NCBI RefSeq assembly: GCF_001642725.1
Contig: NZ_LSUQ01000025.1
Coordinates: 1 to 36,379, forward strand
Source: Ferroacidibacillus organovorans
GTDB lineage: Bacteria > Bacillota > Bacilli > Alicyclobacillales > SLC66
Direction of reading: 5' to 3'
DNA length: 36,379 bases
Part shown: positions 1,520 through 20,702 of the stretch, one piece after another
Numbering within the stretch: the stretch's first letter is position 1
Layout: the number at the start of each line of letters is the position of its first letter
The notes under the pieces: generated by a model
The model's input: the letters and a program-made list of their open reading frames with translations, nothing else
Database searches by the model: none
Told to the model about the DNA's origin: nothing
Program-made: the position numbers and the translations under genes

Positions 1520-1552
1520 TGAAATGAATCTATGCTTTGGGGGGACACAGTC

Positions 1553-4891: not shown

Positions 4892-5815
4892 TTGTCGCAT
4901 CGGCATGTTTTGATTAGTAATCCGGCTAAACTATCGAGTCGAAATGAACAGTTAGTTATTCGACCCATTGTAACTGACGCTAGTGGAGATACGTACACCA
5001 TTCCACTTGAGGACATACGATCGGTAATGCTGGAGGACAGGGCGACTATTGTCACGTCTGCCCTGTTATCTAAACTTGCGGAGTTTAACATATCTCTATA
5101 CACTTGCGACGAGAAACATCTGCCTAACGGAGTTATGATTGCCTACAACCAACACTCCCGTGCACTAAAAGTGTTGAAATCACAGTTGCACATGAATCGC
5201 CCATTTGCCAAAAGACTTTGGCAATCTATTGTCAAACGCAAGATTGAGAATCAGGCTGGGTGCTTAGAACAAGCGGGTTGTCAAGGCGGTTCCCGCCTTC
5301 GTACTCTCGCTCGTACTGTTGAGTCCGGGGATCGCTCTAATGTAGAATCCCACGCAGCAAGACTCTACTTTCAATCTTTATTCAGCGAGTCGTTTGTACG
5401 TAGAAACGACGATTTTGCTAACTCCGCAATGAATTATGGGTACGCTATTGTAAGGGGTCAGGTTGCCCGAGCGCTATGCTCTTATGGCTATCTCCCGTCC
5501 ATCGGCCTACATCATCATAGCGAGTTGAATAATTTCAACCTAGCCGATGACTTCATGGAACCGTTTCGTCCTATCGTTGACTTGCTTGTCGCAAGCGAAC
5601 TGACTGGAGACGAGCATGATGATCTCACACCGCGCCATAAGCAATGCCTATATGGCGTGCTGGCTCAAGAAGTACTTGTCAACAATCAAAAGTTTAACGT
5701 TACTGCTGCGATCGATGTAATGGTTTCAAGCTTTACTCATTCAATTTCAACCCTAGACCCAGGAGACCTGCTTCTGCCATCCATCACAGCGATTAGGACG
5801 GAGGTCTATGAGTAA
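4892..5815 (+). CDS. cas1: Type II CRISPR-associated endonuclease Cas1
   Basis: IPLEDI, CDEKHLP, NSAMNYGYAIVRG, GLHHHSELNNFNLADDFMEPFRP motifs; lies between cas9 and cas2. Confidence 0.97.
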   Translation: MSHRHVLISNPAKLSSRNEQLVIRPIVTDASGDTYTIPLEDIRSVMLEDRATIVTSALLSKLAEFNISLYTCDEKHLPNGVMIAYNQHSRALKVLKSQLHMNRPFAKRLWQSIVKRKIENQAGCLEQAGCQGGSRLRTLARTVESGDRSNVESHAARLYFQSLFSESFVRRNDDFANSAMNYGYAIVRGQVARALCSYGYLPSIGLHHHSELNNFNLADDFMEPFRPIVDLLVASELTGDEHDDLTPRHKQCLYGVLAQEVLVNNQKFNVTAAIDVMVSSFTHSISTLDPGDLLLPSITAIRTEVYE

Positions 5816-6128
5816 TTACATGAGACTTCTCGTATTGTTCGATTTACCTGTCGGCACGGGGCTCGAGCGCAAGGCAGCGTCTCGATTCCGTACTTTTCTA
5901 CTCACAGACGGCTACTACATGATTCAATTTTCATGTTACTGTCGAATTTGCGGGAGTTTCGAGATAGCCGATAAGCACGAACGTCGTTTAGAAGCAAACC
6001 TACCAGTAAAGGGGTCGGTCCGAAGTCTAGTTGTGACGGAGAAGCAATTTTCAAGAATGAAAATTCTTGTGGGAGAACACGTCTCCAATGAGGTGAAAAT
6101 TCACAGTGAGCAACTTGTGCTTTTTTGA
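5808..6128 (+). CDS. cas2: CRISPR-associated endoribonuclease Cas2
   Basis: MRLLVLFDLP, FRTFLLTDGYYMIQFSCY, GSVRSLVVTEKQF. No csn2 or cas4 follows, so subtype II-C. Confidence 0.97.
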   Translation: MSNYMRLLVLFDLPVGTGLERKAASRFRTFLLTDGYYMIQFSCYCRICGSFEIADKHERRLEANLPVKGSVRSLVVTEKQFSRMKILVGEHVSNEVKIHSEQLVLF

Positions 6129-6226: not shown

Positions 6227-9200
6227 ATTATACCACATCGAGAACTACGAGGGAGCGATAACACACGCCCGTGGCGGTGTTGGACGGTGTTTATTATACC
6301 ACATCGAGAACTACGAGGGAGCGATAACTCTACGAACGGTTGGATGATCTCGAGGTTTATTATACCACATCGAGAACTACGAGGGAGCGATAACTCTCGA
6401 GCTCTTGAAGATAGGATAGTTCTAATTATACCACATCGAGAACTACGAGGGAGCGATAACATTGCAATCAGTAGTGTTGGGAGCATTACGATTATACCAC
6501 ATCGAGAACTACGAGGGAGCGATAACACTATGTTGAGGCTGTTAACCCTGCTTATGATTATACCACATCGAGAACTACGAGGGAGCGATAACAGTGTTGC
6601 TTCTGGCAATTCAAGATCATAAATTATACCACATCGAGAACTACGAGGGAGCGATAACTCCAGAAAACAGCTTGCAAGCATTGCAAAATTATACCACATC
6701 GAGAACTACGAGGGAGCGATAACACGACTACTACGATCCTGAGTCGGAGAAGAATTATACCACATCGAGAACTACGAGGGAGCGATAACCCAGATTGCGT
6801 GATCGCAAGTGACTGGAATATTATACCACATCGAGAACTACGAGGGAGCGATAACCCATTGATTCGGCCTTGTTTTATCGCTTCGATTATACCACATCGA
6901 GAACTACGAGGGAGCGATAACATAGGAGCCGGAACTGTAACAAACTCTTCTATTATACCACATCGAGAACTACGAGGGAGCGATAACCATGGGGTTTCCT
7001 TCTTTCGGGTGGTTTGTATTATACCACATCGAGAACTACGAGGGAGCGATAACTAACGGTTCCAAGACTGTCCACGATCTCCGATTATACCACATCGAGA
7101 ACTACGAGGGAGCGATAACACACTGACCGATATCCACACAGGCGATACATTATACCACATCGAGAACTACGAGGGAGCGATAACTTGAGACTCTCATGAT
7201 CGGTTGGTCAATGAATTATACCACATCGAGAACTACGAGGGAGCGATAACAAGATCTTTTGGGTTGTCATAGGACAAATGATTATACCACATCGAGAACT
7301 ACGAGGGAGCGATAACGTCACGCAAACAATAGGGCTTGCGGATAACATTATACCACATCGAGAACTACGAGGGAGCGATAACGGAACTGCAACAACGGCG
7401 AGTGCTACTGTATTATACCACATCGAGAACTACGAGGGAGCGATAACATAGGAGCCGGAACTGTAACAAACTCTTCTATTATACCACATCGAGAACTACG
7501 AGGGAGCGATAACTGCATCAACCCTTTGACCGTTTGCGCTACGATTATACCACATCGAGAACTACGAGGGAGCGATAACAATAACGTGGTGGCGGCGATT
7601 AACGGCGCGATTATACCACATCGAGAACTACGAGGGAGCGATAACTCGCTAGCACATCCGCACTGCTGTCTGATATTATACCACATCGAGAACTACGAGG
7701 GAGCGATAACAGCGCACGTCGAATTTGTTGCCGCGATGAAATTATACCACATCGAGAACTACGAGGGAGCGATAACCTGCATTTGTCACGCTAGGATACG
7801 CTTTGTATTATACCACATCGAGAACTACGAGGGAGCGATAACCCCCGGCTGCACGCCTTTTGCAACCCCACTATTATACCACATCGAGAACTACGAGGGA
7901 GCGATAACTACACGTTTGCGATACAAAATGCAGAAGGGATTATACCACATCGAGAACTACGAGGGAGCGATAACACCCGGCTGGATCAAGTCAAGTCCCG
8001 GCAGATTATACCACATCGAGAACTACGAGGGAGCGATAACTACAAGTAGAAAGGGGCGTGAAGTATTTGAATTATACCACATCGAGAACTACGAGGGAGC
8101 GATAACCATCTCTGTCGCTTTGTTCGCGCCAGACGCATTATACCACATCGAGAACTACGAGGGAGCGATAACTCTTCTTCGTCGACATCCAACTCTTGGA
8201 GATTATACCACATCGAGAACTACGAGGGAGCGATAACCGTGGAGGCTGTCTAGGATCGCGCGATGGCATTATACCACATCGAGAACTACGAGGGAGCGAT
8301 AACCGCATCGGCGTCAAACCCGCGGACCTTGAAATTATACCACATCGAGAACTACGAGGGAGCGATAACAGTAGGCGATCCGATGTTAAACCCCGTGCCA
8401 TTATACCACATCGAGAACTACGAGGGAGCGATAACTCTATAAAGGCGGTAACTTTTTAGTACAAAATTATACCACATCGAGAACTACGAGGGAGCGATAA
8501 CCTGAGCTCGTGGAACGTTTGCGCGTGCCCATTATACCACATCGAGAACTACGAGGGAGCGATAACCATCAAAGCGATGGGTGTTAATTTTTCGATATTA
8601 TACCACATCGAGAACTACGAGGGAGCGATAACTTGCGGTCACATCAGGAATTTACAAAGGACATTATACCACATCGAGAACTACGAGGGAGCGATAACAC
8701 CAGTCTTGAAGAAGAGATGAAACGAGCAATTATACCACATCGAGAACTACGAGGGAGCGATAACTGCGGTCTCCGTGTATTGTGTACATTGACGATTATA
8801 CCACATCGAGAACTACGAGGGAGCGATAACCGGAGAAGACAAGATAACAAATTGATCGCCATTATACCACATCGAGAACTACGAGGGAGCGATAACATGG
8901 ACAAGCAGAGTCTTTTAAGAGGTCGCATTATACCACATCGAGAACTACGAGGGAGCGATAACCGGGGCTCATCCCTCGATCAGGCAACACAAATTATACC
9001 ACATCGAGAACTACGAGGGAGCGATAACTTCATCACCGCGTCATCGACAACAATCGGCATTATACCACATCGAGAACTACGAGGGAGTGATAACAAGTAA
9101 CTTATTCTCGTCAGGATACAAGTTATTATACCACATCGAGAACTACGAGGGAGCGATAACAGATGAGGCGGGCGACCGAGTGGGTGGAGCATTATACCAC

Positions 9201-9340
9201 ATCGAGAACTACGAGGGAGCGATAACTCTCCGCGTTCGATGTTCGCGACGGACTGCATTATACCACATCGAGAACTACGAGGGAGCGATAACCTGGTTGG
9301 ACAGCAGGAAATTGTCTTTGATATTATACCACATCGAGAA
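6227..9340 (-). CRISPR. Type II-C CRISPR array: 47 full 36-nt repeats, 1 half repeat, 47 spacers (41 x 30 nt, 6 x 29 nt)
   Basis: Repeat on + ATTATACCACATCGAGAACTACGAGGGAGCGATAAC; crRNA sense GTTATCGCTCCCTCGTAGTTCTCGATGTGGTATAAT ends in an extended -10 (TGnTATAAT). One variant repeat (C>T at 9088). Final repeat 9323-9340 is truncated. Confidence 0.99.
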
Positions 9341-9418: not shown

Positions 9419-9706
9419 ATGCGAGTGTACGATAAAGAATTCAAAGAAGAAGCATTAAAATTATCTTATGAAATCGGGCCCACAGCGGCCTCCGAACAAC
9501 TGGGGGTTCCACCCACAACGCTGTACACATGGAGGGGTCAAAGCAAGAAGCATGGATCCTTGGCATTTGTAGGGAGTGGCCACCAGCGCATAGATCCGAA
9601 AACTGCCGAAATGAAAGGGTTGGAGAAAAAGATCAGGGAACTGGAATCCGCCAATGATATCCTGAAAAAGGCGTTAGCTTTTTTCGCAGAGAGCCAAAAG
9701 AGGTAG
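9419..9706 (+). CDS. IS3-family transposase OrfA (HTH)
   Basis: YDKEFKEEALKL...ASEQLGVPPTTLYTW HTH followed by leucine-zipper-like LEKKIRELESANDILKKA. Confidence 0.92.
   Translation: MRVYDKEFKEEALKLSYEIGPTAASEQLGVPPTTLYTWRGQSKKHGSLAFVGSGHQRIDPKTAEMKGLEKKIRELESANDILKKALAFFAESQKR
9679..9685 (+). promoter_or_regulatory. Candidate -1 programmed frameshift site (T TTT TTC) fusing OrfA and OrfB
   Basis: X XXY YYZ heptamer in the orfA frame; the -1 frame is open from here into orfB. AAAAAG at 9665-9670 is an alternative. Confidence 0.55.
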
Positions 9707-9717
9707 CTGCACGAGAC

Positions 9718-10605
9718 TTGTTTCGTTTTATAGGGATTCAAAAGAAAAAAGACGAAGCCAAGCACAGTGTAAAGGAAATGTGTAAGGTTTTGCATGTCAG
9801 CGAAGCCGGTTACTATCGCTGGCGGCGCACTCAAAACAGTCCCTATAAATATGATGATCTTTTGGCGAAGATCCGTCAGATTCGTGCAGAAAACAAGGAC
9901 TATGGAACGTACCGCATCTTTTTGGCCTTGCAACTGTTCCACAGCTATACCGGTACCTATTATGTGGTTCGGAGACTTTGCAAAACGCATCAGTTGATGC
10001 TGAAGAAGAACCATCATGCCAAGGGAACGACCAAGGCTGACCCTGCTGCACAAGCGAGCGAAAACCTGATAAAGCAGGATTTCACTGCCACGGCTCCCAA
10101 TCAAAAGTGGCTGGGGGATATCACGGAGATCCCCACGGCGGAGGGCAAACTGTATGTCAGCGCCGTTTTGGATTGTTATGATGGCGCGATTGTAGGATTT
10201 AAGATGGCGGACAACATGAAAGCCGAACTCTGTGTCGCGTCATTCACCTTGGCTGCCCAAAAACATCAAGCCTTTGGCATGACGTTTCATAGTGACCGAG
10301 GAAGTCAATACACCAGCAAGATGTACCGAGAAACCTTGGCCAGGTTTGGTGCAGTGCAAAGTATGAGTCATACCGGAAGATGCTATGACAACGCCAGAAT
10401 GGAATCCTTTTTTGCCACGCTGAAAAAAGAGTGCATTTACAAGGTTAAAACAGAAACATTGAAGATGGAGGTGGTCAAAAGCATGGTTTTCCGATTTGTC
10501 GAAATTCACTATAACCGGAAACGAATTTACACAACCAACGATGGTTATCCACCTTTGATGAAACGTCGTCAATATTACCGAGACCAGCTGTCCAAGGTAG
10601 TCTAA
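9718..10605 (+). CDS. IS3-family transposase OrfB (DDE/rve integrase core)
   Basis: PNQKWLGDITEI, FHSDRGSQYTS, QSMSHTGRCYDNARMESFFATLKKE. Confidence 0.95.
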   Translation: MFRFIGIQKKKDEAKHSVKEMCKVLHVSEAGYYRWRRTQNSPYKYDDLLAKIRQIRAENKDYGTYRIFLALQLFHSYTGTYYVVRRLCKTHQLMLKKNHHAKGTTKADPAAQASENLIKQDFTATAPNQKWLGDITEIPTAEGKLYVSAVLDCYDGAIVGFKMADNMKAELCVASFTLAAQKHQAFGMTFHSDRGSQYTSKMYRETLARFGAVQSMSHTGRCYDNARMESFFATLKKECIYKVKTETLKMEVVKSMVFRFVEIHYNRKRIYTTNDGYPPLMKRRQYYRDQLSKVV

Positions 10606-10926
10606 AAAGCGGGTAGCTAAGGTCTTGCTCCAACCATCTGTCGCAAGACCGTTTTTCATTTTGTTTAGGGATTCATTCGTCAAGGTCAGGTCGTATTTTC
10701 CAGAAAAGTACGTCTGGAAAATCTCCACCTTACCCTTGACTTCACTCACAACCCCTAGGCGTAGCCATGAATCGGTATTACGAGTTTCGGGACTAAACTA
10801 AATTTGACAATTCCAAATTTGAAAAGAGAATTTTGGGCTTTGACGCGATGTGGTCCGAGTGGTGTAAAAGGGACATCAAGCGTTTGCGTGGATTTTCGCG
10901 CTCGCATTTCTGTGGTAGAAGGTGGG

Positions 10927-10952
10927 TCCCCCGCGCGGTGCGGGGGATTTTT
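10927..10952 (+). terminator. Rho-independent terminator
   Basis: TCCCCCGC-GCGGT-GCGGGGGA-TTTTT. Confidence 0.7.
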
Positions 10953-11142
10953 ATGGTTGGCGGGAGGAAGATTGTCGCGGCATCGCGAGAAAGTGGCATT
11001 GGCGATGGAACATGTAGAAATCAAGATCGTAAAGGATCAAATGGAATACGAGGTTGCGCGCGATCACCAGAAAGGTCTTGATAATACCAGTGAACTGTGG
11101 GGTGTGATGGACGAAGATGCATGGAACACGCTCCGGTTCCTT

Positions 11143-11257
11143 TCCTTCAGAATTATAGCGCAATAACGCAATGGTTTAGACAAGCCCCACAATGCATAAC
11201 CATGGTGCACTCAGGTCGAATCGCTATTGCAGATAAGCTTCCTTTAGTCCCATAAAG
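11143..11257. repeat. Cassette-junction module 1 (weak site, TGCATAACCA box, site TATTGCAGATAA-GCTTCCT-TTAGTCCCATAA)
   Basis: Same layout and spacing as the modules at 12409, 13152 and 14251. Confidence 0.5.
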
Positions 11258-11285
11258 AAATCCCTCCCGATTTACGGAGGGACTG
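11255..11285 (-). terminator. Terminator of the phosphotransferase gene
   Basis: Minus strand TCCCTCC-GTAAATCG-GGAGGGA-TTTCTTT. Confidence 0.7.
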
Positions 11286-11292
11286 TCGAAGG

Positions 11293-12294
11293 TTAATTCC
11301 AAATGTCCACGATAGGTGTACCATTTTCAATTCTCATCTTTGCTTCAGAGATGAAATCTTTTCCCCACTGATTCAACTCTGATACATCGGGATGGTTTTT
11401 GTACATGCCAACATATACGATAATTTCCCGTAAACGAAGGAATAATGGGATTTGCATCATCCAGTATTTATCAATTTCGTGTTCTTGAGAATACCCCTTC
11501 ATGAAATGCTCCATGAAGCGACTTGCCTGAGATTCACGAAGTTCCCTTCCGTCATCTCCTCCATAGACATACACCAGGTAGTACATCTGAGTGACGATAT
11601 CATTTATAAACCAACTGTACTGTGCTTCATCAAAATCAAACAAAACAACCCGTGAGCCATCTACCCTAAAATTACCCACATGGACATCCCCATGCGTAAG
11701 TCCAAATGATTGGCGTTCTGCAGGTAGTGCCTGAATGTTACTGATAGTGTTCCTACATCCCTCGAACATATTGACTTGATCACTAGGAACAAATCCATGG
11801 ATGTTTGTCAGATAAAAGTTGTCACGCCATTCTCCACGCTGAACCCTCTTAGAGGAAGGTAAGAACGACTTGGACACAGCGTGCAGCCTGCCAATCGCTA
11901 CGCCACAATTGTAGTACAGTTCGTAGTCATGTAAACAATCAGGATAAGGAACAGACCTGCCTTCTGCTTTTACAAACGATGCAACAGTGAAGCCCGAACC
12001 ATGTTGTCCAACAAATTCAGCCAAGTTTCCCCTCACGGATGCAACTGGAGCAGACACTGCCACTCCATTCTTCTTCAAGTAGAGAAGCCACTCAAGTTCG
12101 CCTCTCACTAAATTGACGCTTCGATGTGCGCTTGGTGTAAAACGAAGAATATAGGTTTTTGCGCCACTTTGATATTCATAAACAAAGTTCATCGACCCAT
12201 GACATGGAGTCAATGATTCTAGTGATACACCAAATAAAGAGGCTCCATAGCCAACTATATCGCCGGTGAACTGTTGCAGAAGATTCTTCTCCAA
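11293..12294 (-). CDS. APH/homoserine kinase type II-like phosphotransferase
   Basis: YILRFT, ELEWLLYL, Brenner motif HGDVHVGNF and DFDEA; RBS AGAGGAG before TTG. Confidence 0.9.
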   Translation of the reverse strand: MEKNLLQQFTGDIVGYGASLFGVSLESLTPCHGSMNFVYEYQSGAKTYILRFTPSAHRSVNLVRGELEWLLYLKKNGVAVSAPVASVRGNLAEFVGQHGSGFTVASFVKAEGRSVPYPDCLHDYELYYNCGVAIGRLHAVSKSFLPSSKRVQRGEWRDNFYLTNIHGFVPSDQVNMFEGCRNTISNIQALPAERQSFGLTHGDVHVGNFRVDGSRVVLFDFDEAQYSWFINDIVTQMYYLVYVYGGDDGRELRESQASRFMEHFMKGYSQEHEIDKYWMMQIPLFLRLREIIVYVGMYKNHPDVSELNQWGKDFISEAKMRIENGTPIVDIWN

Positions 12295-12408
12295 ACTTAT
12301 TCTCCTCTCTAAAGATGTTGTTAGAGGGGGACGTTGCGTAGTTTAATGCACCTAAAGCAATGCATTCTTGTCACTCCTTCCATATCTCAAAACATCATGA
12401 TGATAATT

Positions 12409-12525
12409 TTCTTCAGCATAACTGCCCAAGTGCGACACAACCTTTGCGTACCTCGAACTGCATAATCATAAAAGACCAGACGAGACATCATTCTTCATAC
12501 GATCCTACGCCCGTTATCCGAATAA
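12409..12525. repeat. Cassette-junction module 2 (TCTTCAGCATAA-CTGCCC..., TGCATAATCA box, TTCTTCATACGATCC-TACGCCCG-TTATCCGAATAA)
   Basis: The second site contains the HAD stop codon (12514-12516). Confidence 0.5.
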
Positions 12526-13101
12526 CAAAAGCTCTACTTGTGGTATCCACGTTCCGAATTCATCTGCTTGTAAGGTCATCCATCCCAATTCAATGGCCGG
12601 TATGAAGTTTTTCTCTTGGTCATCAACGAATAAAACAATCTGTTCCGCATCAAGTTTATTTGCCAATACGTCATATATCTCACGGTGCGGTTTGCAACAC
12701 CCTACGTCACTGGATATGGTAAAAGTTCTTATGTATTTGCGTACAGTGGCCAAGGGTTTCATAAGCCATTCGGTACGATGGTTACTTAATAGATGGATGT
12801 CTGCTATCTCGCTCCATCTTGCCAAATGGTTCAAAGCTGGCAATGGTTGAAGGCTTGATTGTAAAGAGTCTTTGGCGTTGTTCAAGTTGACAGTTGGGAA
12901 TGTCACACATAGCCGATTCCAAAATTCTTCTTCCGTAAATGCACCAGTCCATAACTGTTCTCGAACGTTGACCTTAAAATCCGAGACTAGGTCTTCATAC
13001 GAAATACTTGCGCTATCTGATAACAGTTGCCAAAATAGGGGTGACATATTGGTAATCAGCACTCCCGCAATATCTAGAACGAGTTGTGGCTTATTGCCCA
13101 A
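12514..13101 (-). CDS. HAD-family hydrolase/phosphatase
   Basis: LVLDIAGVL, LLSN, KPHREIY, LFVDDQEKN; start placed at TTG 13101 after GGAGG. Confidence 0.88.
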   Translation of the reverse strand: MGNKPQLVLDIAGVLITNMSPLFWQLLSDSASISYEDLVSDFKVNVREQLWTGAFTEEEFWNRLCVTFPTVNLNNAKDSLQSSLQPLPALNHLARWSEIADIHLLSNHRTEWLMKPLATVRKYIRTFTISSDVGCCKPHREIYDVLANKLDAEQIVLFVDDQEKNFIPAIELGWMTLQADEFGTWIPQVELLLFG

Positions 13102-13151
13102 AACCTCGCCTCCCATCCCATTATCTCAGCATGATTTCATATCGCCATTAC

Positions 13152-13262
13152 GAACTGAAGATTCCTGCCCGAATGCACATGAGTCATCGCGGTGACACTC
13201 TGCATAATCACGCGCTGGTCAAGCGATGGTGATATTGCTTTTTTCCACACCTGAAAGCTGAA
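13152..13262. repeat. Cassette-junction module 3 (ACTGAAGATTC-CTGCCCG..., TGCATAATCA 13201-13210, degenerate TATTGC site)
   Basis: CTGCCC 36 bp before and TATTGC 32 bp after the box, as in modules 1 and 2. Confidence 0.4.
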
Positions 13263-13319
13263 GGACAACAGGGGTAAATTTGCATCTATTTGTGTATCTA
13301 AGATTACGGTAAGGATCGA

Positions 13320-13721
13320 TCAGGTTTTCCTTCGAATGATCCAGGCATTTTCCGCTTTATCAAAACCAACCGTCGGATAATATGTCATTGCCGTAGGGGC
13401 AGACAATAACAATAGCGATACTTGGTCAGATCATCGTAACTGTGTTTGACGAATCAGTTCTTTTCCGACACCACACCGTTGATAATCCTTGTCAACGGCC
13501 AAATCGGACAAGTAACAACAAAAGCAGAAATCAGTCAGTGAACGAGCCATTCCGACTAATTTTGCTCCGTCCCAAGCTGTGATGATAAGGTTTCCGTGAT
13601 CGATCATCTTTTGTATACGTTCCACATCAGCCGTCGGTCGATTGATTCCAGAGCGTTTGAAAACATCCGCGACCTCTTCTCCAGTTATTGGTGCATTGAA
13701 GTGATATTCGATCGAAGACAA
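13320..13721 (-). pseudogene. GNAT acetyltransferase with in-frame TGA at 13431-13433
   Basis: LVGMARSLTDFCFCCYLSDLAVDKDYQRCGVGKELI...QLR*SDQVSLLLLSAPTAMTYYPTVGF; the GNAT C-terminus continues in frame after the stop. Confidence 0.85.
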
Positions 13722-13776
13722 TTTCAATCCTCCTCTTTTTACCACACAACAATCATTCAACGCGCTGTGGATTCGC

Positions 13777-14196
13777 TCATTCGAGGTATTCCTCCGATCG
13801 AATGGGATTCAAATAGCGGGCCATGGATGTCTTAGCTTTCTTTAATCCCACACTCCGATAAAAATCTTCGTTCCCTGTCGTAGAAATGAGATGGACGCAT
13901 GAAATGTCTTGCAAATGCTGAAGGAGGTCGTTCATGATCAATCTTCCGATGCCCATGCCTTGGTAATTTGAATGGACCACAACGTCATAGATGGCTGCAT
14001 TAAAAACGCCGTCGGATAGCGCCCGGCCAAAGCCGATGACACGATCATTGTCCATCGCGAGGGTGACATGCGTGCTGGCGTTGAAAATTTTCGTGATGAT
14101 GTCTGCGTTATGTGTCATCCAGCCGACGGATGCATAGACGTCTTGCAGTTCCTCCGGGTTGACGGAAGGGAAGTCATTGTGTAGCTTGATGTTCAA
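13777..14196 (-). CDS. GNAT acetyltransferase
   Basis: IGFGRALSDGVFNAAIYDVVVHSNYQGMGIG, NEDFYRSVG; TTG start after GGAGGG. Confidence 0.9.
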   Translation of the reverse strand: MNIKLHNDFPSVNPEELQDVYASVGWMTHNADIITKIFNASTHVTLAMDNDRVIGFGRALSDGVFNAAIYDVVVHSNYQGMGIGRLIMNDLLQHLQDISCVHLISTTGNEDFYRSVGLKKAKTSMARYLNPIRSEEYLE

Positions 14197-14250
14197 TCGT
14201 AACCCTCCGTTTCGCACAATGCGGGATGATGGAACCGTTCAGAACTGCTT

Positions 14251-14362
14251 TTATGGCATTAAGAATACGAGGGAATGCTGTATTTTGTCGTATTATCTAT
14301 GATTATTTATACAATTCGATTGGTTTGCTTTCTTGAACATCAGCTCCCTTTAGAGACAGAAG
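14251..14362. repeat. Cassette-junction module 4 (weak site, TCTATGATTATTTA box, TTCTTGAACATC-AGCTCCCT-TTAGAGACAGAA)
   Basis: Site 14330-14361 lies 9 bp beyond the stop of the GNAT remnant; weak partner site ~80 bp to the left. Confidence 0.45.
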
Positions 14363-14370
14363 AGAGTGAA

Positions 14371-14640
14371 TTACAGCAATGCTTTAGTGAAAAGTATCTC
14401 CAACGGTTTGCTGTGCAACAATAAACAACCTGCGTCTCGATACCCTAACTTTCTATAGAAGTGCTGAGCATCTTCATTCGACAATGTTGATGTCATCACG
14501 AGATCAAAACCTTTTTGTTTCATTTCATTTTCCCAGCAGAGAACAGCTTGCTACTCCACGCCGTTTCCTCGATGCTTCTCGTCAACCCAAATCATGTTTA
14601 TGAATGGTGTGTTGTCCCAAAAGTGCCCATACCTAATGTT
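14371..14640 (-). pseudogene. GNAT acetyltransferase remnant (5'-truncated, in-frame TAG at 14551-14553)
   Basis: RYGHFWDNTPFINMIWVDEKHRGNGVE*QAVLCWENEMKQKGFDLVMTSTLSNEDAQHFYRKLGYRDAG; not in the ORF track. Confidence 0.8.
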
Positions 14641-14660
14641 TAAGAACACGACATATCAAT

Positions 14661-15179
14661 TTACAAATCGATCCAAAATCGTAGTAGAACATTTCCGTTT
14701 TCTTCAAAGTAGCTTGTATCCTGAATCCCACCATTGTTTCGTATTGTCTTTTCAGAGCCTGTATTATCCTTATGGCAAATGACTAAAACTTTTTCTATGC
14801 CTAACTCACTTGCCTTTAGCAATGACAGAGCTAATAGCTTTGTAGCGTACCCTTTTCGTCTCTCAGAAGGTCGAATGCCATACCCAATGTGACCGAAAGT
14901 CGTAAGACTGTGACGGATATTTACTGACCCGACAACCTTTCGGGAGTCAGTTATCAACCAGTATGTTGAAGAAGGTATCCCTCCATCGGGCAAATACTCT
15001 ACTTTCTCGTTATTTAACAAGGATTTAATCATCTTGTGAAAATCTGCAGGGTCTTTGGAAATCACCCATGGTGCCATACCTTCCAACTCTTCACCACCAT
15101 TTACCCACTCCTCATAGAAGGAGATATACTCATTTTGTAAGTCAATAGACGGTCTGCATAGATGTACATTCTCCCCCAT
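14661..15179 (-). CDS. GNAT acetyltransferase
   Basis: STYWL, VGSVNIRHSL, GHIGYGIRPSERRKGYAT, NTGSEKTIRNNGG. Confidence 0.9.
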   Translation of the reverse strand: MGENVHLCRPSIDLQNEYISFYEEWVNGGEELEGMAPWVISKDPADFHKMIKSLLNNEKVEYLPDGGIPSSTYWLITDSRKVVGSVNIRHSLTTFGHIGYGIRPSERRKGYATKLLALSLLKASELGIEKVLVICHKDNTGSEKTIRNNGGIQDTSYFEENGNVLLRFWIDL

Positions 15180-15265
15180 TGTTCAACCCCCAGAAAGTTT
15201 TTCCATAACCAGTTAATATCCGAAAACCAATTCCCGATATAATCCCAATATAATTGATTAGATTG

Positions 15266-15329
15266 TTATTTGGAGATAACCTCCTGTTAGTTCCAGAACA
15301 GTCAGATTGATCTTGTACATGATTATACA
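15266..15329. repeat. Cassette-junction site ATTTGGAGATAA-CCTCCTG-TTAGTTCCAGAA plus TACATGATTATACA box
   Basis: Closely resembles the 11225 site; the box starts ~48 bp after the site start, as in modules 1-3. Confidence 0.5.
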
Positions 15330-15648
15330 CCGAAGTAATTCGTTGGGGGCGACCTCTGTCGTGTTCAAACACTGTTGCCAAAATCGTGTAGGCTTACTTA
15401 GAAAGCGGACGCGATAGTACACACGGTGTCCGTCTATAAGAAAAATTAAAAGTACATGGGTAAAATGATTTTTTGATCCAAAAGAAGCCTCGAGGATGTT
15501 AAGTTGACGATGATACTGAAAACGATTTTCTGGGGAATCAGGAGATTTGCAAGTGAAGATTATTCGTTGCATCTCTATCTGTGCGGATTATTTTTTAAGT
15601 TAAAAATTAATAATTTTTTTGGTTAATATTGAATTTTAGGTGACCTCT

Positions 15649-15681
15649 CTTATGATTTAACTCTCCCGTTTGTTCAATTAG
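15649..15681. repeat. Cassette-junction site CTTATGATTTAA-CTCTCCCG-TTTGTTCAATTA
   Basis: Contains the histidine phosphatase stop codon (15674-15676). Confidence 0.5.
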
Positions 15682-16276
15682 ATTCAGAAATAGTTTTATC
15701 ACCAAATGTCCCGATTTTTTCTATCCCGTTGATATTCTCATTTTTGAAGCTGAGTTTGTAGATGTCAGGCTTGGGCAAGTGTCGAAAGAAGTTAAAGTCA
15801 AATCGGGAGTCGTAGTGGTGCATGATGATTGTCATGATACCTCCATGAATCCCAATTGCCACTCGTTTACCGTTATGTTTTTGAAGTACTTCGTTCATTG
15901 CACTAATTCCACGTCGTTCAACGTCTCTAATCGATTCACCACCTGGGAGTGCAAATTCAGGTTCTATAAAACTTCTCTCGATGGCTTCTAAAGGGTCGGT
16001 GACAATGTAATCGGATTGTGCAAATTTCCGTTCTCGAAACCGTTCGTCCAAGTCGATTGTCACCCCAAGCCTGGTGGCTGTACCTTTGATCGTTTGAATT
16101 GCCCTTACGTATGGACTCGAACAAACCATTTGAATACGTTCTTTCATTAGCAATTCTGTCACAGTCAATGCATCGATACGTCCACGTTCAGAGAGCGTAC
16201 GTGTCTCTTCGTCTCCAGAGGAATAATCCGAATCAGCATGACGCACAAGATAGATTTCAGTTATCACTTCAAGCAC
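15674..16276 (-). CDS. Histidine phosphatase (phosphoglycerate mutase) family protein
   Basis: YLVRHA, SSPYVRAIQT, FRER, GGES, IGIHGG; start may be GTG 16267. Confidence 0.92.
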   Translation of the reverse strand: MLEVITEIYLVRHADSDYSSGDEETRTLSERGRIDALTVTELLMKERIQMVCSSPYVRAIQTIKGTATRLGVTIDLDERFRERKFAQSDYIVTDPLEAIERSFIEPEFALPGGESIRDVERRGISAMNEVLQKHNGKRVAIGIHGGIMTIIMHHYDSRFDFNFFRHLPKPDIYKLSFKNENINGIEKIGTFGDKTISESN

Positions 16277-16472
16277 TCTCCTTTTCTCGGTCTTGCCTAA
16301 GTAGCGTGGATAAAATTTTTAAAATGGTTGTTTTTCCCGCGCCGTTTGAGCCAAGCAGAGCGAAAATACTGCCCTGTTTCACTTCGAAATCTACACCGTT
16401 CAAGACATGGAGCTGTTTGTAGGACTTCTGAAGTCCTTTCACTTGGATTGCCAAGTCTTGCATACTTTGCAC
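16269..16472 (-). pseudogene. ABC transporter ATPase, N-terminal fragment
   Basis: Walker A GSNGAGKTT in a DrrA-like N-terminus, ending ~15 residues later; no permease follows. Confidence 0.85.
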
Positions 16473-16476
16473 ACCC

Positions 16477-17343
16477 TTAGATAACCGTGACGTTTGATAG
16501 ATCGCATCCTATGCCTTTAAGCGAAGCAAAGGTCAACTTATCCAACATCGCTCCGTCAAAGCAGATGGTTTTGATGGCACGGTAGTATTTTTTGGACCAG
16601 GTAAATCCGGAAAGGAAGGATACGTTTCTTAATGTCGCACCTCGAAACGAAACGTCGTTCAGTGCAGATTTATCAAACTTGACACCGATGAAGGTTTGCC
16701 CGTCAAGACACATGCCTCGCAGATCGGAATACTTGAAATCAACGCCATGAAAGATGCAATTCTCAAAGGTCGTTTTTCTGAGGTCAGTCATGGTCAATTT
16801 GGCATCAGTCAGTTTAACATCGATGAACATTGCGCCTTTCAAACTTGACATGCTCACGTTTGTACGTACGAAAACGGATTTGCGGAAGCTTGCATCCGTA
16901 AGGTCAGAGGTGGAAAAGCTACAGTCAGTTAGATTTGCTCTGTCAAAATTGGCTTCTCGCACATCGCTGGCTTCAAATGAGCTACTGGTCAAGTCTGCGC
17001 CAGCAAAATTGGCACCGCGCAACGCGCTCGCTTTGAATTTTCCTTTGTGAGCGCTCACGCCCGCAAAGTCACTCTCTTTCAGATTGCTCGCGCTGAAATT
17101 TATCAGCACCTGACGCTCCAGTGAGTGGGAGAGGTTGGCGACCTCCTGTACCGTTTGCTCAATGTCGCCAATGCTGTCAAGGGTCATTTCAAAAGCTGTA
17201 TCATCATCCTTGCCTTCGGCTTTGAGTTCACGAAAGCGCTCCTGCAAATCGGAGAGTAGGTCAGCCTTTAGTTCGGTAACGCTTTTTATTCCATCGTAGG
17301 GCGCGAATAAATCGTTTAAATAGTTCGTCAGTTTATCATGCAT
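16477..17343 (-). CDS. Pentapeptide repeat protein with N-terminal helical (permease-prefix-like) domain
   Basis: A(D/N)LXX repeats (ANFAGADLTSSSF, ANFDRANLTDCSF); ATG 17343 after AAGGAG. Confidence 0.88.
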   Translation of the reverse strand: MHDKLTNYLNDLFAPYDGIKSVTELKADLLSDLQERFRELKAEGKDDDTAFEMTLDSIGDIEQTVQEVANLSHSLERQVLINFSASNLKESDFAGVSAHKGKFKASALRGANFAGADLTSSSFEASDVREANFDRANLTDCSFSTSDLTDASFRKSVFVRTNVSMSSLKGAMFIDVKLTDAKLTMTDLRKTTFENCIFHGVDFKYSDLRGMCLDGQTFIGVKFDKSALNDVSFRGATLRNVSFLSGFTWSKKYYRAIKTICFDGAMLDKLTFASLKGIGCDLSNVTVI

Positions 17344-17357
17344 AACGTCAAATCTCC

Positions 17358-17687
17358 TTACAATAAGATGTCGAGCACGCGTTTTGCGTACTCCCAATTG
17401 TTTTTGTTGCTGGCGTAAGTAGCCCTACCCTTTTCGGTTATCCGAAAGTACTTGCGCCGTCCCCCCTGAGATTCATCGCCCCAATACCACTCGATGTCAC
17501 CATCTGCCTCCAGCCGCCGGACGCTTGAGTACATCGTAGCTTCTTTCAACTCATACTCACCATCTGAACGCTCGGCAATCCGTTTGACAATTTCGTAGCC
17601 ATAGCGGTCAGCTTCGGATAAGAGTCGCAAAATCATCGTATCGGTGTGTCCTCGCAGCAGGTCAGATGTGATTTTATTCTCACTCAT
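17358..17687 (-). CDS. PadR-family transcriptional regulator
   Basis: DLLRGHTDTMIL, YGYEI, EATMYSSVRRLE, GGRRKYFRITEKG. Confidence 0.93.
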   Translation of the reverse strand: MSENKITSDLLRGHTDTMILRLLSEADRYGYEIVKRIAERSDGEYELKEATMYSSVRRLEADGDIEWYWGDESQGGRRKYFRITEKGRATYASNKNNWEYAKRVLDILL

Positions 17688-17796
17688 ATCGTCACCTCGA
17701 CATCGGCATCATACATCACATTACTATATCAGTCAATATACTTTGTTAGCTGTTTTACAGTGCGTAATTTAAACGGCGTCGTTTTATAACTAAAAC

Positions 17797-17842
17797 AAAA
17801 CCCGTTATTCCGCTGACGAAAATCAGCAGAATAACGGGTTTT
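17797..17842. terminator. Long hairpin, probable bidirectional terminator
   Basis: AAAACCCGTTATTC-C-GCTGA-CGAAAA-TCAGC-A-GAATAACGGGTTTT. Confidence 0.65.
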
Positions 17843-17912
17843 GGGGGTGTTTTCAGCATGTAGGCGGAGAATTTTTACTTGGCGACAAGATTTCGACTCT
17901 GGTTTGTCTCCA

Positions 17913-18449
17913 TTACATCGTGTGAATTGCTTTTTTAACTCGATAAACTCGGCCTCGTATGACGAAACAGTAAATAACACCTAGGAGTGCCCCTGATATG
18001 CCTTGAATCGATGGGTAAAGATAAGACGGAAATGGAACATGAAATCCATTTTTGCTAATGATCAGGAAACCTAAGATTACAAAAAGTAACGTGTTCATTG
18101 AGAATTTCATTCTTCGATCGATTTCTTCACATGCTTCGAGAGCGACGGATGGTTGTTTCAATCCATTTTCAGCATCTCCCGCTAGAATGAATTCGACCAA
18201 TGCAGGGTTATATTTTTTCGATACATGAAGTGTTGATAATCTATGAAAAAATCTTCGGGTTGGGAATGTTTGGATCGTCAAACTTAAAAACCATGTGATT
18301 AGAAATAGTGCAAAGAAGATTAGGCCGATGTAGCCAACGTGCCAAATGCCGGAACCCATGAGACCCAGAAACGCAGTACCGATCATGCCATCGGATAGTA
18401 TGTTAACTGCCCCCATCAAACGCTGATCCCCCATACCCTCGCAGGGCAA
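17913..18449 (-). CDS. Hypothetical membrane protein (~4 TM)
   Basis: Four hydrophobic segments, no recognisable motif; start uncertain. Confidence 0.55.
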   Translation of the reverse strand: MPCEGMGDQRLMGAVNILSDGMIGTAFLGLMGSGIWHVGYIGLIFFALFLITWFLSLTIQTFPTRRFFHRLSTLHVSKKYNPALVEFILAGDAENGLKQPSVALEACEEIDRRMKFSMNTLLFVILGFLIISKNGFHVPFPSYLYPSIQGISGALLGVIYCFVIRGRVYRVKKAIHTM

Positions 18450-18483
18450 AATTATGATTTACTTTAATATTACCACAAAAGTA

Positions 18484-18513
18484 AAAATTCTCCGCGCAGT
18501 GCGGAGAATTTTT
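18484..18513. terminator. Terminator after MFS gene
   Basis: AAAATTCTCCGC-GCAGT-GCGGAGAATTTT inverted repeat. Confidence 0.75.
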
Positions 18514-20227
18514 ACTTGGACTCAGTGGACGATTCGCTCTCGCGGTGGATATAGCGCTTGCCGCGAAAGAGAGAGACGACGGCGGCGATGAGGGACATGA
18601 TGAGCGAGACGGTGAAGGCGAGTACGAGACCGTGCATGAAGGGCTGCGCGATCAAGGTCGGAAAGAACCGCTGACCGACGACGATGCTCGCTTGGCTCGC
18701 TGGCATGTGCTGGAGAATTCCGAATTGCTGTAGGAGGTTTTGCAAAGGGTTATAACCGAGCAGCGCCGCAAAGAGCGAGGCGGTTGGCGGCAAATGGGAG
18801 ATTTGCACGGCGCCGGCAAGAGGGACGCCATGGCGTGTAAGTCCCGTCAGCATGGCGTGCGGCAACTTCTGTGCGAGTCCGGCAATCATGACGGAAAAGA
18901 AGAGTCCCATGCTGAGCATGGAGCCGGCGTTTGTGAAGGTGGAGCGCATCCCTGATCCGACGCCGCGATACTGCGGCGGGAGTGAATTCATGATGGCGGC
19001 GCTGTTCGGTGACGCGAAAAGACCCATGCCGGCGCCGATTATGAAAAGATACGTAAAAAACATCCACGGATTGAAATCCACAGGGAGTGTGGCCATCAGG
19101 AAAAATCCGAGGGCGGTAAGCACCATTCCAGAGGTGGCGAAGATGCGCGCGCCAAAGCGATCGGAGAGTATCCCGCTGACAGGGCCTGCGACGAGAAAGC
19201 CGATCATCTGCGGGAGGGTGTAGAGTCCCGCGATCAGCGGCGTTCGCGCGTAGGAGATGCCGTGCAGTGGGAGGTAGATCCCCTGCAGCCAGATGATGAG
19301 CATGAATTGAAGGCCTCCGCGCGCCAGTGATGCGAGCAGTCCGCTCAGGTTTCCTGCAGTAAATGGCCAGATCTTGAAGAGTTTCAGATTGAAAAGCGGT
19401 TGCTCAGTGACGTGTTCGATGAGGACGAAAAGGCCGAGCATAAGCACGCCGCCGATCAGCCCTGTGAGCACCCAAGGGTTGGTCCAGCCCATCGTGTGAT
19501 GGTTGTAGGGCATGATGCCGTAGGTGAGGCCGAGCATGATACCGAGAAGACCGAGCGTGAGCGTGATGTTGCCCCAGATGTCCAGGTGCTGTTTTGCCGC
19601 TTTCTTGTTGACTTCTTTGAGCGCGATGTAAGCCCACACGGTGCCCAAGAGCCCGACGGGGACGTTTACGAGAAAGATAAAGCGCCAGTTGCCCGTCGCG
19701 GCGAGTGCCCCGCCGATCAAAAGGCCGATGATCCCGCCGCCAACCGCGGCGACTTGGTTTAGTCCGAGCGCCAAACCGCGCTGGTTCTCGGGAAAGGCGT
19801 CCGTCAGGATGGCGGCGCCGTTTGCAAAGAGAAAACCGCCGCCGATGCCTTGAATGATGCGAAAGATGATCAGTTCGACTTCCCCCGCCGTCCCTTTGCT
19901 CCAGGTGAGCGCTGCGAGCACGGAGCCGATGGTGAAAATGAGAAATCCCATATTGTAAAGGCGCACGCGGCCAAACATGTCAGACAGGCGACCGAACAGC
20001 ACGAGCAATACGGTGGTCGCGATGTTGAAGCCGAGCAGCACCCAGAGCAGGAGCCCAGTTTGATTGCTGGCGAGTGGGTTGACCTTTAGTCCATTGAAGA
20101 TCACGGGGAGCGCGATGATCAGGATAGACTGATTGATCGTCGCCATCAAGACGCCAAGCGTCGTGTTGGATAAAGCGATCCACTTATAGTGGGGGCTCGC
20201 GGTCTTTGGTGTGGCGTCAGGCGACAT
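18512..20227 (-). CDS. MFS drug:H+ antiporter (DHA2/EmrB-QacA-like)
   Basis: GRLSDMFGRVR motif A, WRFIFLVNVPVG, ~14 TM; ATG 20227 after AAGGAG. Confidence 0.92.
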   Translation of the reverse strand: MSPDATPKTASPHYKWIALSNTTLGVLMATINQSILIIALPVIFNGLKVNPLASNQTGLLLWVLLGFNIATTVLLVLFGRLSDMFGRVRLYNMGFLIFTIGSVLAALTWSKGTAGEVELIIFRIIQGIGGGFLFANGAAILTDAFPENQRGLALGLNQVAAVGGGIIGLLIGGALAATGNWRFIFLVNVPVGLLGTVWAYIALKEVNKKAAKQHLDIWGNITLTLGLLGIMLGLTYGIMPYNHHTMGWTNPWVLTGLIGGVLMLGLFVLIEHVTEQPLFNLKLFKIWPFTAGNLSGLLASLARGGLQFMLIIWLQGIYLPLHGISYARTPLIAGLYTLPQMIGFLVAGPVSGILSDRFGARIFATSGMVLTALGFFLMATLPVDFNPWMFFTYLFIIGAGMGLFASPNSAAIMNSLPPQYRGVGSGMRSTFTNAGSMLSMGLFFSVMIAGLAQKLPHAMLTGLTRHGVPLAGAVQISHLPPTASLFAALLGYNPLQNLLQQFGILQHMPASQASIVVGQRFFPTLIAQPFMHGLVLAFTVSLIMSLIAAVVSLFRGKRYIHRESESSTESK

Positions 20228-20231
20228 CAGG

Positions 20232-20702
20232 TTATTCTCCTTCAGTTTCATTTTTGCGAAACCCATTCTCGCGAAAATAGAGGGATTTTTGCAGACGCTC
20301 TTGATAACGGTCGCGCATTGCAGTCACGCTTTCTATTTTTTCATCCATTTTTTCAATCAGTTGACGGAGCACCTCGATATAGCGATCGGTGTATTCCAGT
20401 TGTCTTTCGTGATCCTGCCTGTTCTGATGGAACGATTGTCGCAACGCATCGAGTGCCTGCTCGGCGTCGAGAATCTCGCGAATCTCTTGAAGCGAAACGC
20501 CTAAATTCTCTTTCAATCGAAGAATCTGCTGTAAGCGTTCCACCGTCTTCTGGTCATAGAGGCGGTGCCCGCCGCTGGTTCTTGAACTGGGCGCGATCAA
20601 CCCGACTTCTTCGTAATAGCGAAGTGTGCGCGGGGTTAGAGGAAGTTGGCGAAGGACGGCTTCAACAGTCAATTCACCAGGTTCTTGTTCTGTCACGGTC
20701 AT
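20232..20702 (-). CDS. MerR-family transcriptional regulator
   Basis: RTLRYYEEVGLI, SGGHRLY, LGVSLQEIREIL plus coiled coil. Confidence 0.9.
   Translation of the reverse strand: MTVTEQEPGELTVEAVLRQLPLTPRTLRYYEEVGLIAPSSRTSGGHRLYDQKTVERLQQILRLKENLGVSLQEIREILDAEQALDALRQSFHQNRQDHERQLEYTDRYIEVLRQLIEKMDEKIESVTAMRDRYQERLQKSLYFRENGFRKNETEGE

Follow-up and report, generated by a model that had tools for sequence, protein, structure and literature searches.

A probable decaying array of mobile gene cassettes, with short directional sites and a putative Xer-like recombinase, in Ferroacidibacillus organovorans

Examining a 36,379-nucleotide stretch of Ferroacidibacillus organovorans DNA (contig NZ_LSUQ01000025.1, positions 1 to 36,379 of the forward strand; this whole stretch is the window below), we found that the segment from 11150 to about 16480 is probably a decaying array of mobile gene cassettes served by a site-specific recombination system. 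An initial annotation of the same DNA had proposed an eroding array of single-gene cassettes, and our analysis supports this idea while adding two components, non-coding modules that behave as cassettes and the remnant of a large serine recombinase. The row of genes described there, an APH-family phosphotransferase, a HAD hydrolase, four GNAT acetyltransferases, and a histidine phosphatase, all on the minus strand, agrees with Pfam. The array can be called eroding because two of the GNAT genes are fragments, the sites are degenerate, and the recombinase genes found elsewhere in the genome are broken; on the same grounds it looks like a fossil, comparable to the clusters of attC sites lacking integron-integrases (CALINs). 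A literature search that included the site motifs as text found no description of this system in a limited literature collection.

The evidence begins with the sites. Five strings of about 31 bp had been singled out at 11225, 12491, 14330, 15268, and 15649, and each is found once, at that position. Three of these sites (11227, 14333, and 15270) form a mutually similar triple of 21-mers with 48/63 matches, the top direct-repeat family of a repeat finder; none of 60 dinucleotide shuffles reached 48/63, and 7 of the 60 gave any triple. To score the sites we used a position weight matrix (PWM) of 25 nt trained on 122 distinct cores from other contigs and other genomes, with all window copies excluded. 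The five sites score 12.3, 10.4, 14.9, 15.4, and 12.5 bits in the order given. Further matches at 12417 (14.9 bits) and 13160 (16.8 bits) recover two weaker copies that had been placed at 12410 and 13152, and a third lies at 13242 (10.9 bits); two other proposed copies, at 11144 and 14251, stay under 6.5 bits, and alignment puts there the degenerate left sites of two of the modules described below (M1 and M4). No seed or training set contained the sites at 12417, 12502, 13160, 13242, and 15657, which therefore serve as an independent validation of the model. Matches of at least 10 bits number 10 on the plus strand and 1 on the minus strand between 11101 and 16520, compared to 0.75 on average and at most 4 in 500 shuffles, and 1 plus and 4 minus in the remaining 30,959 bases of the window, which places the motif far above shuffled DNA under a model trained outside the window. 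A match at 11419-11443 (13.7 bits) lies within the APH coding sequence and may be either chance or an internal secondary site, and another at 14950 (10.1 bits), within a GNAT gene, may be due to chance.

The conserved core of the sites is about 25-30 bp long with an invariant CCC centre, and the genes are antisense to it. Cores are of two types; four of the five sites first noticed are right-hand cores and the fifth is a single core, with the weaker copies at 12410 and 13152 being left-hand cores. Type 1, the left core when sites are read in their own orientation (the window plus strand), has CTGCCC in the spacer and lies on the start side of a gene; type 2 has GCnCCC followed by GTTAG-like bases and CAA, lies on the stop side of the next gene, and often overlaps its stop codon. 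The sites thus recur, share one orientation, and sit at gene boundaries, as first described, and this is true both in the window and in other arrays. It had also been remarked that some junctions lack a site, and indeed there is none at 13760/13777 or near 14650; from 13266 to 14338 no PWM match reaches 6.5 bits, so that a GNAT fragment and the whole GNAT gene next to it (13431-14217) have no site between them.

In longer alignments from Alicyclobacillales, a conserved non-coding module some 85 nt long lies between two direct cores. Because the two core types bracket the module, genes and modules alternate, and both appear from sequence comparison to behave as cassettes. The window holds five modules, all on the plus strand. 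M1 (11193-11256; nhmmer E = 4.6e-10) includes the first site as its right site (11232-11256, with the centre TCC at 11240-11242). The degenerate M2 (12417-12526) runs from a CTGCCC-type site at 12417-12441 to the second site at 12502-12526, which contains the stop codon of the HAD gene. M3 (13160-13266) has sites at 13160-13184 and 13242-13266, and the segment 13164-13310 is 71% identical to positions 22040-22175 of contig C41 of this genome. M4 (14300-14362; E = 3e-6) and M5 (15236-15299; E = 1.1e-4) include the third and fourth sites as their right sites, at 14338-14362 and 15275-15299. The fifth site (15657-15681, plus strand) stands alone at a gene-gene junction without a module and overlaps the stop codon of the histidine phosphatase gene. 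As a separate observation, one metagenome contig each from X6 and X7 skips 13226-13523, comprising part of M3 and the 3' part of the GNAT fragment, with ends that are not at a scoring site.

Each module carries a 14-bp near-palindrome with a perfect TATAAT (consensus TGTATAATCATACA; for example, 11193-11210, 14300-14316, and 15236-15252). It may represent an operator or an accessory binding site. Neither a -35 box, in whichever orientation, nor a fold is conserved alongside it, and the module as a whole may act as a promoter, an operator, or an accessory binding site. This operator-like element fits a quite different explanation, in which the motif is a dispersed intergenic repeat of regulatory or structural function (a promoter, operator, terminator, or an element like repetitive extragenic palindromes or miniature inverted-repeat transposable elements) and homologous recombination produces the look of cassettes. 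The same explanation draws support from the position of modules, mostly 57-216 nt upstream of the next gene, and from one complete genome (G046), where they are scattered round the chromosome in orientations that follow the replichore. However, sigma-70-like promoters are not enriched (11 vs 13.3 expected), and none lies consistently in modules. RNAalifold on 21 modules yields 0 consensus pairs, which lends no support to an attC-like hairpin or to a structured RNA, in keeping with the first description, which had supposed an array without classical attC hairpins. No RYYYAAC/GTTRRRY pair was seen by eye, and Rfam gives no match at the gathering score in the whole window and three chance-level matches (E 2.4-4.4) in 10600-18600. 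A -35/-10 pair picked out by eye in the module was dropped, being unconserved between module subfamilies. We also considered the C-rich spacer as the complement of a ribosome-binding site and the motif as a coding remnant, and gave both ideas up once copies with breakpoints had been found.

Modules are spread through this genome (G000) and its relatives. When the region is compared by BLAST with the remaining contigs of this genome, its non-coding stretches turn up again. A profile built from such recurring stretches, with three window copies among its seeds, was iterated and detects 17 copies (E < 1e-3) distributed over 11 contigs, with one orientation per contig. Of these, 16/17 directly follow the 3' end of a gene to which they are antisense; the exception, on contig C35, falls within a 506-amino-acid (aa) open reading frame (ORF). 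We sampled 61 related genomes from two families, and a covariance model of the module has matches in 38 of them, including 33 copies in G012. Among 70 modules in 31 sequences from six genomes, every sequence with at least two modules (21/21) carries them in a single orientation. The cargo of these other arrays is of the kinds usual in cassettes and includes GNATs, HAD, NUDIX, glyoxalase, DinB, MFS, APH, and methyltransferase genes. A strict two-block site pattern had no match in a collection of genome contigs; a second pattern matched 5 loci, in Alicyclobacillus tolerans, Alicyclobacillus sp. SP_1, and one metagenome-assembled genome (MAG) of Bacillota.

Further comparisons concern where homology stops, and homologous segments in other genomes and other contexts do end at the sites, as the initial annotation had required. 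Within G012, C69 7727-8517 and C70 8992-9785 are 99.1% identical over 794 nt, the identity beginning at the CCC of one core and ending at that of the following core; C35 18145-18735 and C69 5111-4521 are 99.3% identical over 591 nt, with GGG at both ends (in gene orientation), and the modules flanking the two copies are unrelated and of different subfamilies. A 97.5% segment shared by C35 (15312) and C86 of the same genome is likewise bounded at the invariant CCC, and so is the DUF2785 cassette shared by contig C61 of G000 and C50 of G027. All four possible junction types exist: gene-module, module-gene, gene-gene (a hybrid in G027:C50), and module-module (a tandem in G012:C64). When we took high-scoring segment pairs of at least 250 nt and at least 88% identity and counted internal ends no more than 8 nt away from a core in one partner or both, 20 of 48 ends qualified (12 in both partners) vs 1.4% of random positions; at recombinase loci, including those of Bacillaceae, 24 of 110 did vs 1.3% of random positions, with identity often stopping just past the CCC.

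The window takes part in these comparisons. An 88.5% match of its truncated GNAT cassette to a complete counterpart in G012:C64 starts at 14339, within the third site, and a match to C41 ends within the first. Among independently assembled metagenomes, one contig from X5 follows the window to 11247 and two from X7 follow it to 11244, and they then continue into different right half-sites; an X7 contig (record 16) stops aligning at 12422, in the left core of M2, and has 61 further letters that do not align, and another X5 contig keeps the window arrangement across 11087-13624. Cover from X7 is nil over 11313-12396, the APH cassette; we did not count this as evidence and used only the loose ends at 11244 and 12422. 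The breakpoints speak against a dispersed repeat reshaped by homologous recombination: identity stops at CCC at both ends of a gene while unrelated modules lie outside, and exchange within an 85-nt repeat would not give identity bounded in this way. Sites also occur singly without a module (15657, and most Bacillaceae sites), and a tyrosine recombinase travels with the arrays, leaving the repeat explanation very improbable.

The initial annotation had supposed a tyrosine recombinase encoded elsewhere, and such a gene was found, Xer-like and linked to arrays, broken in this genome and intact in relatives. On contig C83 it is interrupted by an in-frame stop and a frameshift; a core comes next, and after it a cassette array in which modules separate MFS, phosphoesterase plus GNAT, DinB, and HAD genes. 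A second copy of this gene-plus-core block, 96.8% identical and likewise broken, lies at the end of C61 beside a different cassette. The intact enzyme has 280 aa, with matches to PF00589 (124 bits) and the SAM-like N-terminal domain PF02899 (29 bits), and its catalytic residues R137, K161, H227, R230, H253, and Y262 are invariant in 15 homologues. Three intact enzymes score 84.1, 90.3, and 94.9 bits, in two stretches, with the integron integrase model TIGR02249, whose cut-off is 265; these low scores indicate that the array-borne recombinase is not IntI. Among NCBIfam models, XerC, XerA, and XerD fit it best, and none of these matches reaches its cut-off (194-208 bits vs 335 for XerC). At 10 of 12 loci that we fetched, a core of at least 11 bits lies 50-142 nt past the recombinase stop in fixed orientation, and arrays follow; in G053:C54, 15 co-oriented cores occur in 9 kb at successive gene junctions. 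The site after the gene recalls a fixed platform, yet sites also precede the gene, and no promoter was identified. The recombinase gene has cores on both sides and moves as a site-bounded unit, and in G053 and G060 (L059 2504-4645, L060 2247-4818, and L061 1939-4078) the unit is about 2.1 kb long and includes two small divergent genes, one of them UPF0158 and the other without a family, whose products are candidate accessory or regulatory factors.

The reach of this cassette system in Bacillota appears wide. At E <= 1e-40 the recombinase family has 1341 members in the database, whose names go no further than 'tyrosine-type recombinase/integrase' or 'XerD', and at least 560 stretches of a species-level genome collection encode a relative. 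The best 80 of these were sampled; at 49-56% identity they include proteins from Neobacillus, Priestia megaterium, Psychrobacillus, Lysinibacillus, Fictibacillus, Gracilibacillus, a Symbiobacteriaceae MAG, and Truepera. Around 76 of these loci the Alicyclobacillales PWM has 624 matches of at least 12 bits in 1136 kb, a density of 0.27 per kb per strand vs 0.04 genome-wide in G000; 53 of the 76 loci have at least 5 matches, and in 41 of the 53 the share on one strand is 80% or more. In Neobacillus mesonae and Fictibacillus nanhaiensis there is a site at each junction, in arrays longer than 18 kb of genes encoding 100-340 aa. Some sites of these two species have perfect 10-bp inverted arms around an 8-bp C-rich spacer, exactly the arm-spacer-arm geometry first proposed for the window, and the Bacillaceae consensus has arms TTSAACTAA and TTAGTTSAA with a spacer containing CTGCCC. 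Although single sites have such perfect arms, mean arm complementarity over 479 sites is 5.2/10. Whether there is a second, phylum-wide kind of 'integron' in Bacillota (Alicyclobacillales, many Bacillaceae, perhaps Sulfobacillus and Symbiobacteriaceae) seems to us evenly balanced; it would consist of chromosomal arrays of dozens of single-gene cassettes, with short double-stranded lox/dif-like sites, a dedicated Xer-like recombinase that is itself a cassette, and independently travelling non-coding modules that may supply regulation.

A recombinase of another family also lies beside several arrays. The window array begins beside the remnant of a large serine recombinase, consisting of the 3' end of the gene and downstream DNA (10982-11192, plus strand), which forms the left flank of the array. 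Its part 10982-11115 is 88.6% identical to 19988-20127 of C41, within a 520-aa serine recombinase ORF (L011:1803-3365), and tblastn gives 27 aa at 89% identity; C41 carries a whole copy, the second of a tandem pair. In site orientation, a serine recombinase gene or remnant stands directly upstream of the first module in the window, C41, C72, and G004:C27, so these enzymes could be the ones that move the cassettes. Paralogues of a 497-aa large serine recombinase, 66-74% identical, occur on six contigs of this genome (C72, C56, C59, C46, C69, and C68), and two of the six, together with the orthologue in G004:C27, lie at the edges of cassette arrays. However, only the C72 paralogue has scoring sites within 400 nt in an array layout, a single weak match accompanies C56 and C68 (10.7 and 13.7 bits, respectively), and around C46 and C69 nothing scores on the correct strand. 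An arm-spacer-arm site with a 7-8-bp spacer fits tyrosine and not serine recombinases, and the Bacillaceae arrays were found by way of the tyrosine recombinase. We rejected the serine recombinase as the cassette enzyme, its paralogues not consistently adjoining cores, and regard a role for it in moving cassettes as extremely improbable; the paralogues may instead belong to a mobile element that prefers array regions. The IS3-family element of the window (9419-10816; orfA 9419-9706, orfB 9718-10605) cuts the remnant off upstream and may have truncated that gene. The final 217 nt of this element recur at 83-96% identity in its own genome and many relatives.

For an array shuffled by the Xer-like enzyme, we propose the following mechanism. 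Arms around an asymmetric, directional spacer are the usual substrate of tyrosine recombinases, and here the substrate would be the double-stranded core, with imperfectly inverted arms around a 7-8-bp asymmetric spacer containing CCC. Recombination between any two direct sites would excise the unit between them as a circle with one hybrid site, and the circle could re-insert at any other site; excision and re-insertion at direct sites would explain why all four junction types occur and why genomes differ by cassette-sized pieces. The enzyme would be the 280-aa Xer-like tyrosine recombinase, riding in the arrays as its own cassette. The array of this genome would now be inactive, because both recombinase copies are broken.

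Several points weigh against this reading. The inverted 12-bp arms of the first description are weak in the window, and a clear arm-spacer-arm shape is seen only in relatives: arm complementarity of the five sites is 5, 5, 6, 6, and 8 of 12, within the top 18%, 18%, 6%, 6%, and 0.5% of positions in the region, which barely exceeds chance. In the breakpoint counts, 28/48 homology ends lie away from a scoring core, several of them ends of insertion sequences or ordinary decay of homology, and at recombinase loci 86/110 do; the loci counted were chosen for holding modules or the recombinase, and the relatives are kin, so that counts across them are non-independent. One genome of the same genus (G001) has 313 nt in place of 14288-16471, with ends near degenerate or non-scoring site-like strings only, and we therefore did not count this comparison as support. 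At two of the recombinase loci, L059 and L063, the gene is followed by no scoring site. Among the 42 relatives that lack an orthologue (defined at 60% identity or more), 20 still have modules. More generally, we infer recombination at the cores and the identity of the enzyme from sequence.

The relatives that have modules and lack the orthologue bear on a further explanation, in which the sites are real recombination sites worked by the host XerC/XerD or by another chromosomal recombinase, and the array-borne gene is a passenger. G012 (33 modules), G027, G032, and G046 have modules, and near-identical cassettes in differing contexts, and their best tyrosine-recombinase matches are 28-36% identical to the array enzyme. 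That enzyme has XerC, XerD, and XerA as its nearest families, and its gene is bounded by sites as other cargo is. Other Xer-like genes of this host, on C10 and C80, are 32-35% identical to it. However, the recombinase is conserved at 73-96% identity across two families and about 50% across Bacillaceae, always in arrays, which is hard to explain for random cargo, and 18 of the 19 relatives with an orthologue (among the 61) have modules. Moreover, the sites are all direct, unlike those of the alternating pdif modules. On balance, host Xer proteins working these sites with a passenger gene is an unlikely account, and we retain a dedicated, array-borne recombinase as the preferred one.

The genes of the window array can now be placed, all on the minus strand. 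The APH gene (11293-12294; PF01636, 83.1 bits) has past its stop codon a terminator-like hairpin at 11259-11284, the sole convincing terminator of a promoter and terminator scan. The HAD assignment of the initial annotation (12514-13116) falls below the family cut-off of PF00702 (20.4 bits, E = 7.5e-4); two of the four GNATs are fragments, at 13431-13760 (PF00583) and at 14371-14523, and the other two are whole, at 13777-14217 (PF00583) and 14661-15179 (Pfam). The fragment at 14371-14523, a Pfam match, is a truncated cassette whose homology to G012 extends to 14634 and whose whole homologue is L010:1533-1943. An ORF without a family (15258-15572) and the histidine phosphatase gene (15674-16276; PF00300, 93.9 bits) complete the row. 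The probable right edge of the array (16285-16488, plus strand) has site-like strings, and the PWM scan gave no match of at least 6.5 bits there. Homology with other genomes starts at 16290 (G003, G004, and G017) and at about 16472-16478 (G001, G005, and G035); an X5 metagenome contig diverges at 16291, and X7 depth climbs from 81 to 247. The array thus probably extends to about 16290-16480.

On the left, the window has a type II-C locus with genes for a 1117-aa Cas9 with HNH and RuvC domains (1532-4885), Cas1 (4892-5815), and Cas2 (5808-6128), all identified with Pfam, followed by a CRISPR array (6227-9292) in which a repeat scan finds about 46 units of period 66, made of a 36-nt repeat and spacers of about 30 nt. 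To the right of the array, on the minus strand, are Pfam-supported genes for a pentapeptide-repeat protein (16477-17397), PadR (17358-17687), and an MFS transporter (18512-20266). The pentapeptide-repeat protein encoded beside PadR (16477-17687) has relatives with 66-75% identity at the protein level in Treponemataceae, Ktedonobacteraceae, Anaerolinea, and Bacteroidota MAGs and in Paenibacillus, and this occurrence across phyla suggests wide horizontal spread. A 178-aa ORF without a family (17913-18449) is missing from G001, and metagenome contigs join across 17866-18485, one from 17863 to 18501 (X6) and one from 17859 to 18489 (X8); these joints lie at the terminator hairpin of the MFS gene and not at a cassette site. 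G+C content is about 44% (42-46%) up to about 18 kb and 55-58% thereafter, with the rise at about 18000-18500 at the end of the accessory region, and the DNA between the cas genes and PadR, both included, may be an acquired block of low G+C.

Integrons are the textbook device for storing and shuffling accessory genes, and, if our reading is right, Gram-positive soil and acid-mine bacteria own a cassette system of their own. Tools built on attC, such as IntegronFinder, would not see such arrays, because the sites are simple and double-stranded and the enzyme is Xer-like. The system would hold a large mobile pool of accessory genes, including phosphotransferases and acetyltransferases of antibiotic-modifying kinds. 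It would also mean that cassette capture needs neither an IntI-specific domain nor folded single-strand substrates, and it would offer genome engineering a compact new pair of recombinase and site. IntegronFinder surveys describe complete integrons as essentially absent from Firmicutes, with one case and a few CALINs (PMC4889954, PMC9024848); a phylum-wide system, if real, would explain this near-absence of classical integrons from Bacillota by a niche that is already occupied.

Compared with known systems, the arrays come closest to integrons, above all to the sedentary chromosomal ones and CALINs. They share co-oriented, mostly single-gene cassettes with accessory cargo (GNATs, phosphotransferases, glyoxalases), and GNATs and phosphotransferases are typical integron cargo. 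In both, a bounding recombination site can overlap the stop codon, a tyrosine recombinase is linked, some cassettes have no ORF, and arrays without an integrase occur, the window resembling a CALIN in this respect. The defining organization of integrons, an array of gene-plus-site units exchanged at the site, is what we find here. The differences lie in the parts. The attC site is an imperfect palindrome of about 57-141 nt that folds as a single-strand hairpin with R'', L'', L', and R' boxes, whereas the cores here are short and double-stranded; the recombinase is Xer-like, without the IntI-specific domain; and its gene is flanked by sites, apparently in place of the fixed platform with attI and the promoter Pc on which the integron integrase sits.

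The pdif modules carried by plasmids and chromosomes of Acinetobacter are similar in having discrete gene modules, short Xer-type arm-spacer-arm sites, exchange between contexts, and a recombinase family nearest to that of the array enzyme. However, pdif sites alternate (XerC/D then XerD/C) and rely on host XerCD, while the sites within a locus here all have one orientation, without alternation, and form long chromosomal arrays with a dedicated recombinase gene inside them. Cre/loxP and FLP/FRT likewise have inverted arms around an asymmetric, directional spacer of 7-8 bp, and direct repeats of such sites would excise a circle, but these are single or paired sites for plasmid or phage maintenance, do not form arrays that delimit dozens of unrelated genes, and are not known to be related in sequence to the sites described here. 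Set beside all of these, the arrays represent a cassette system of integron logic with a different chemistry.

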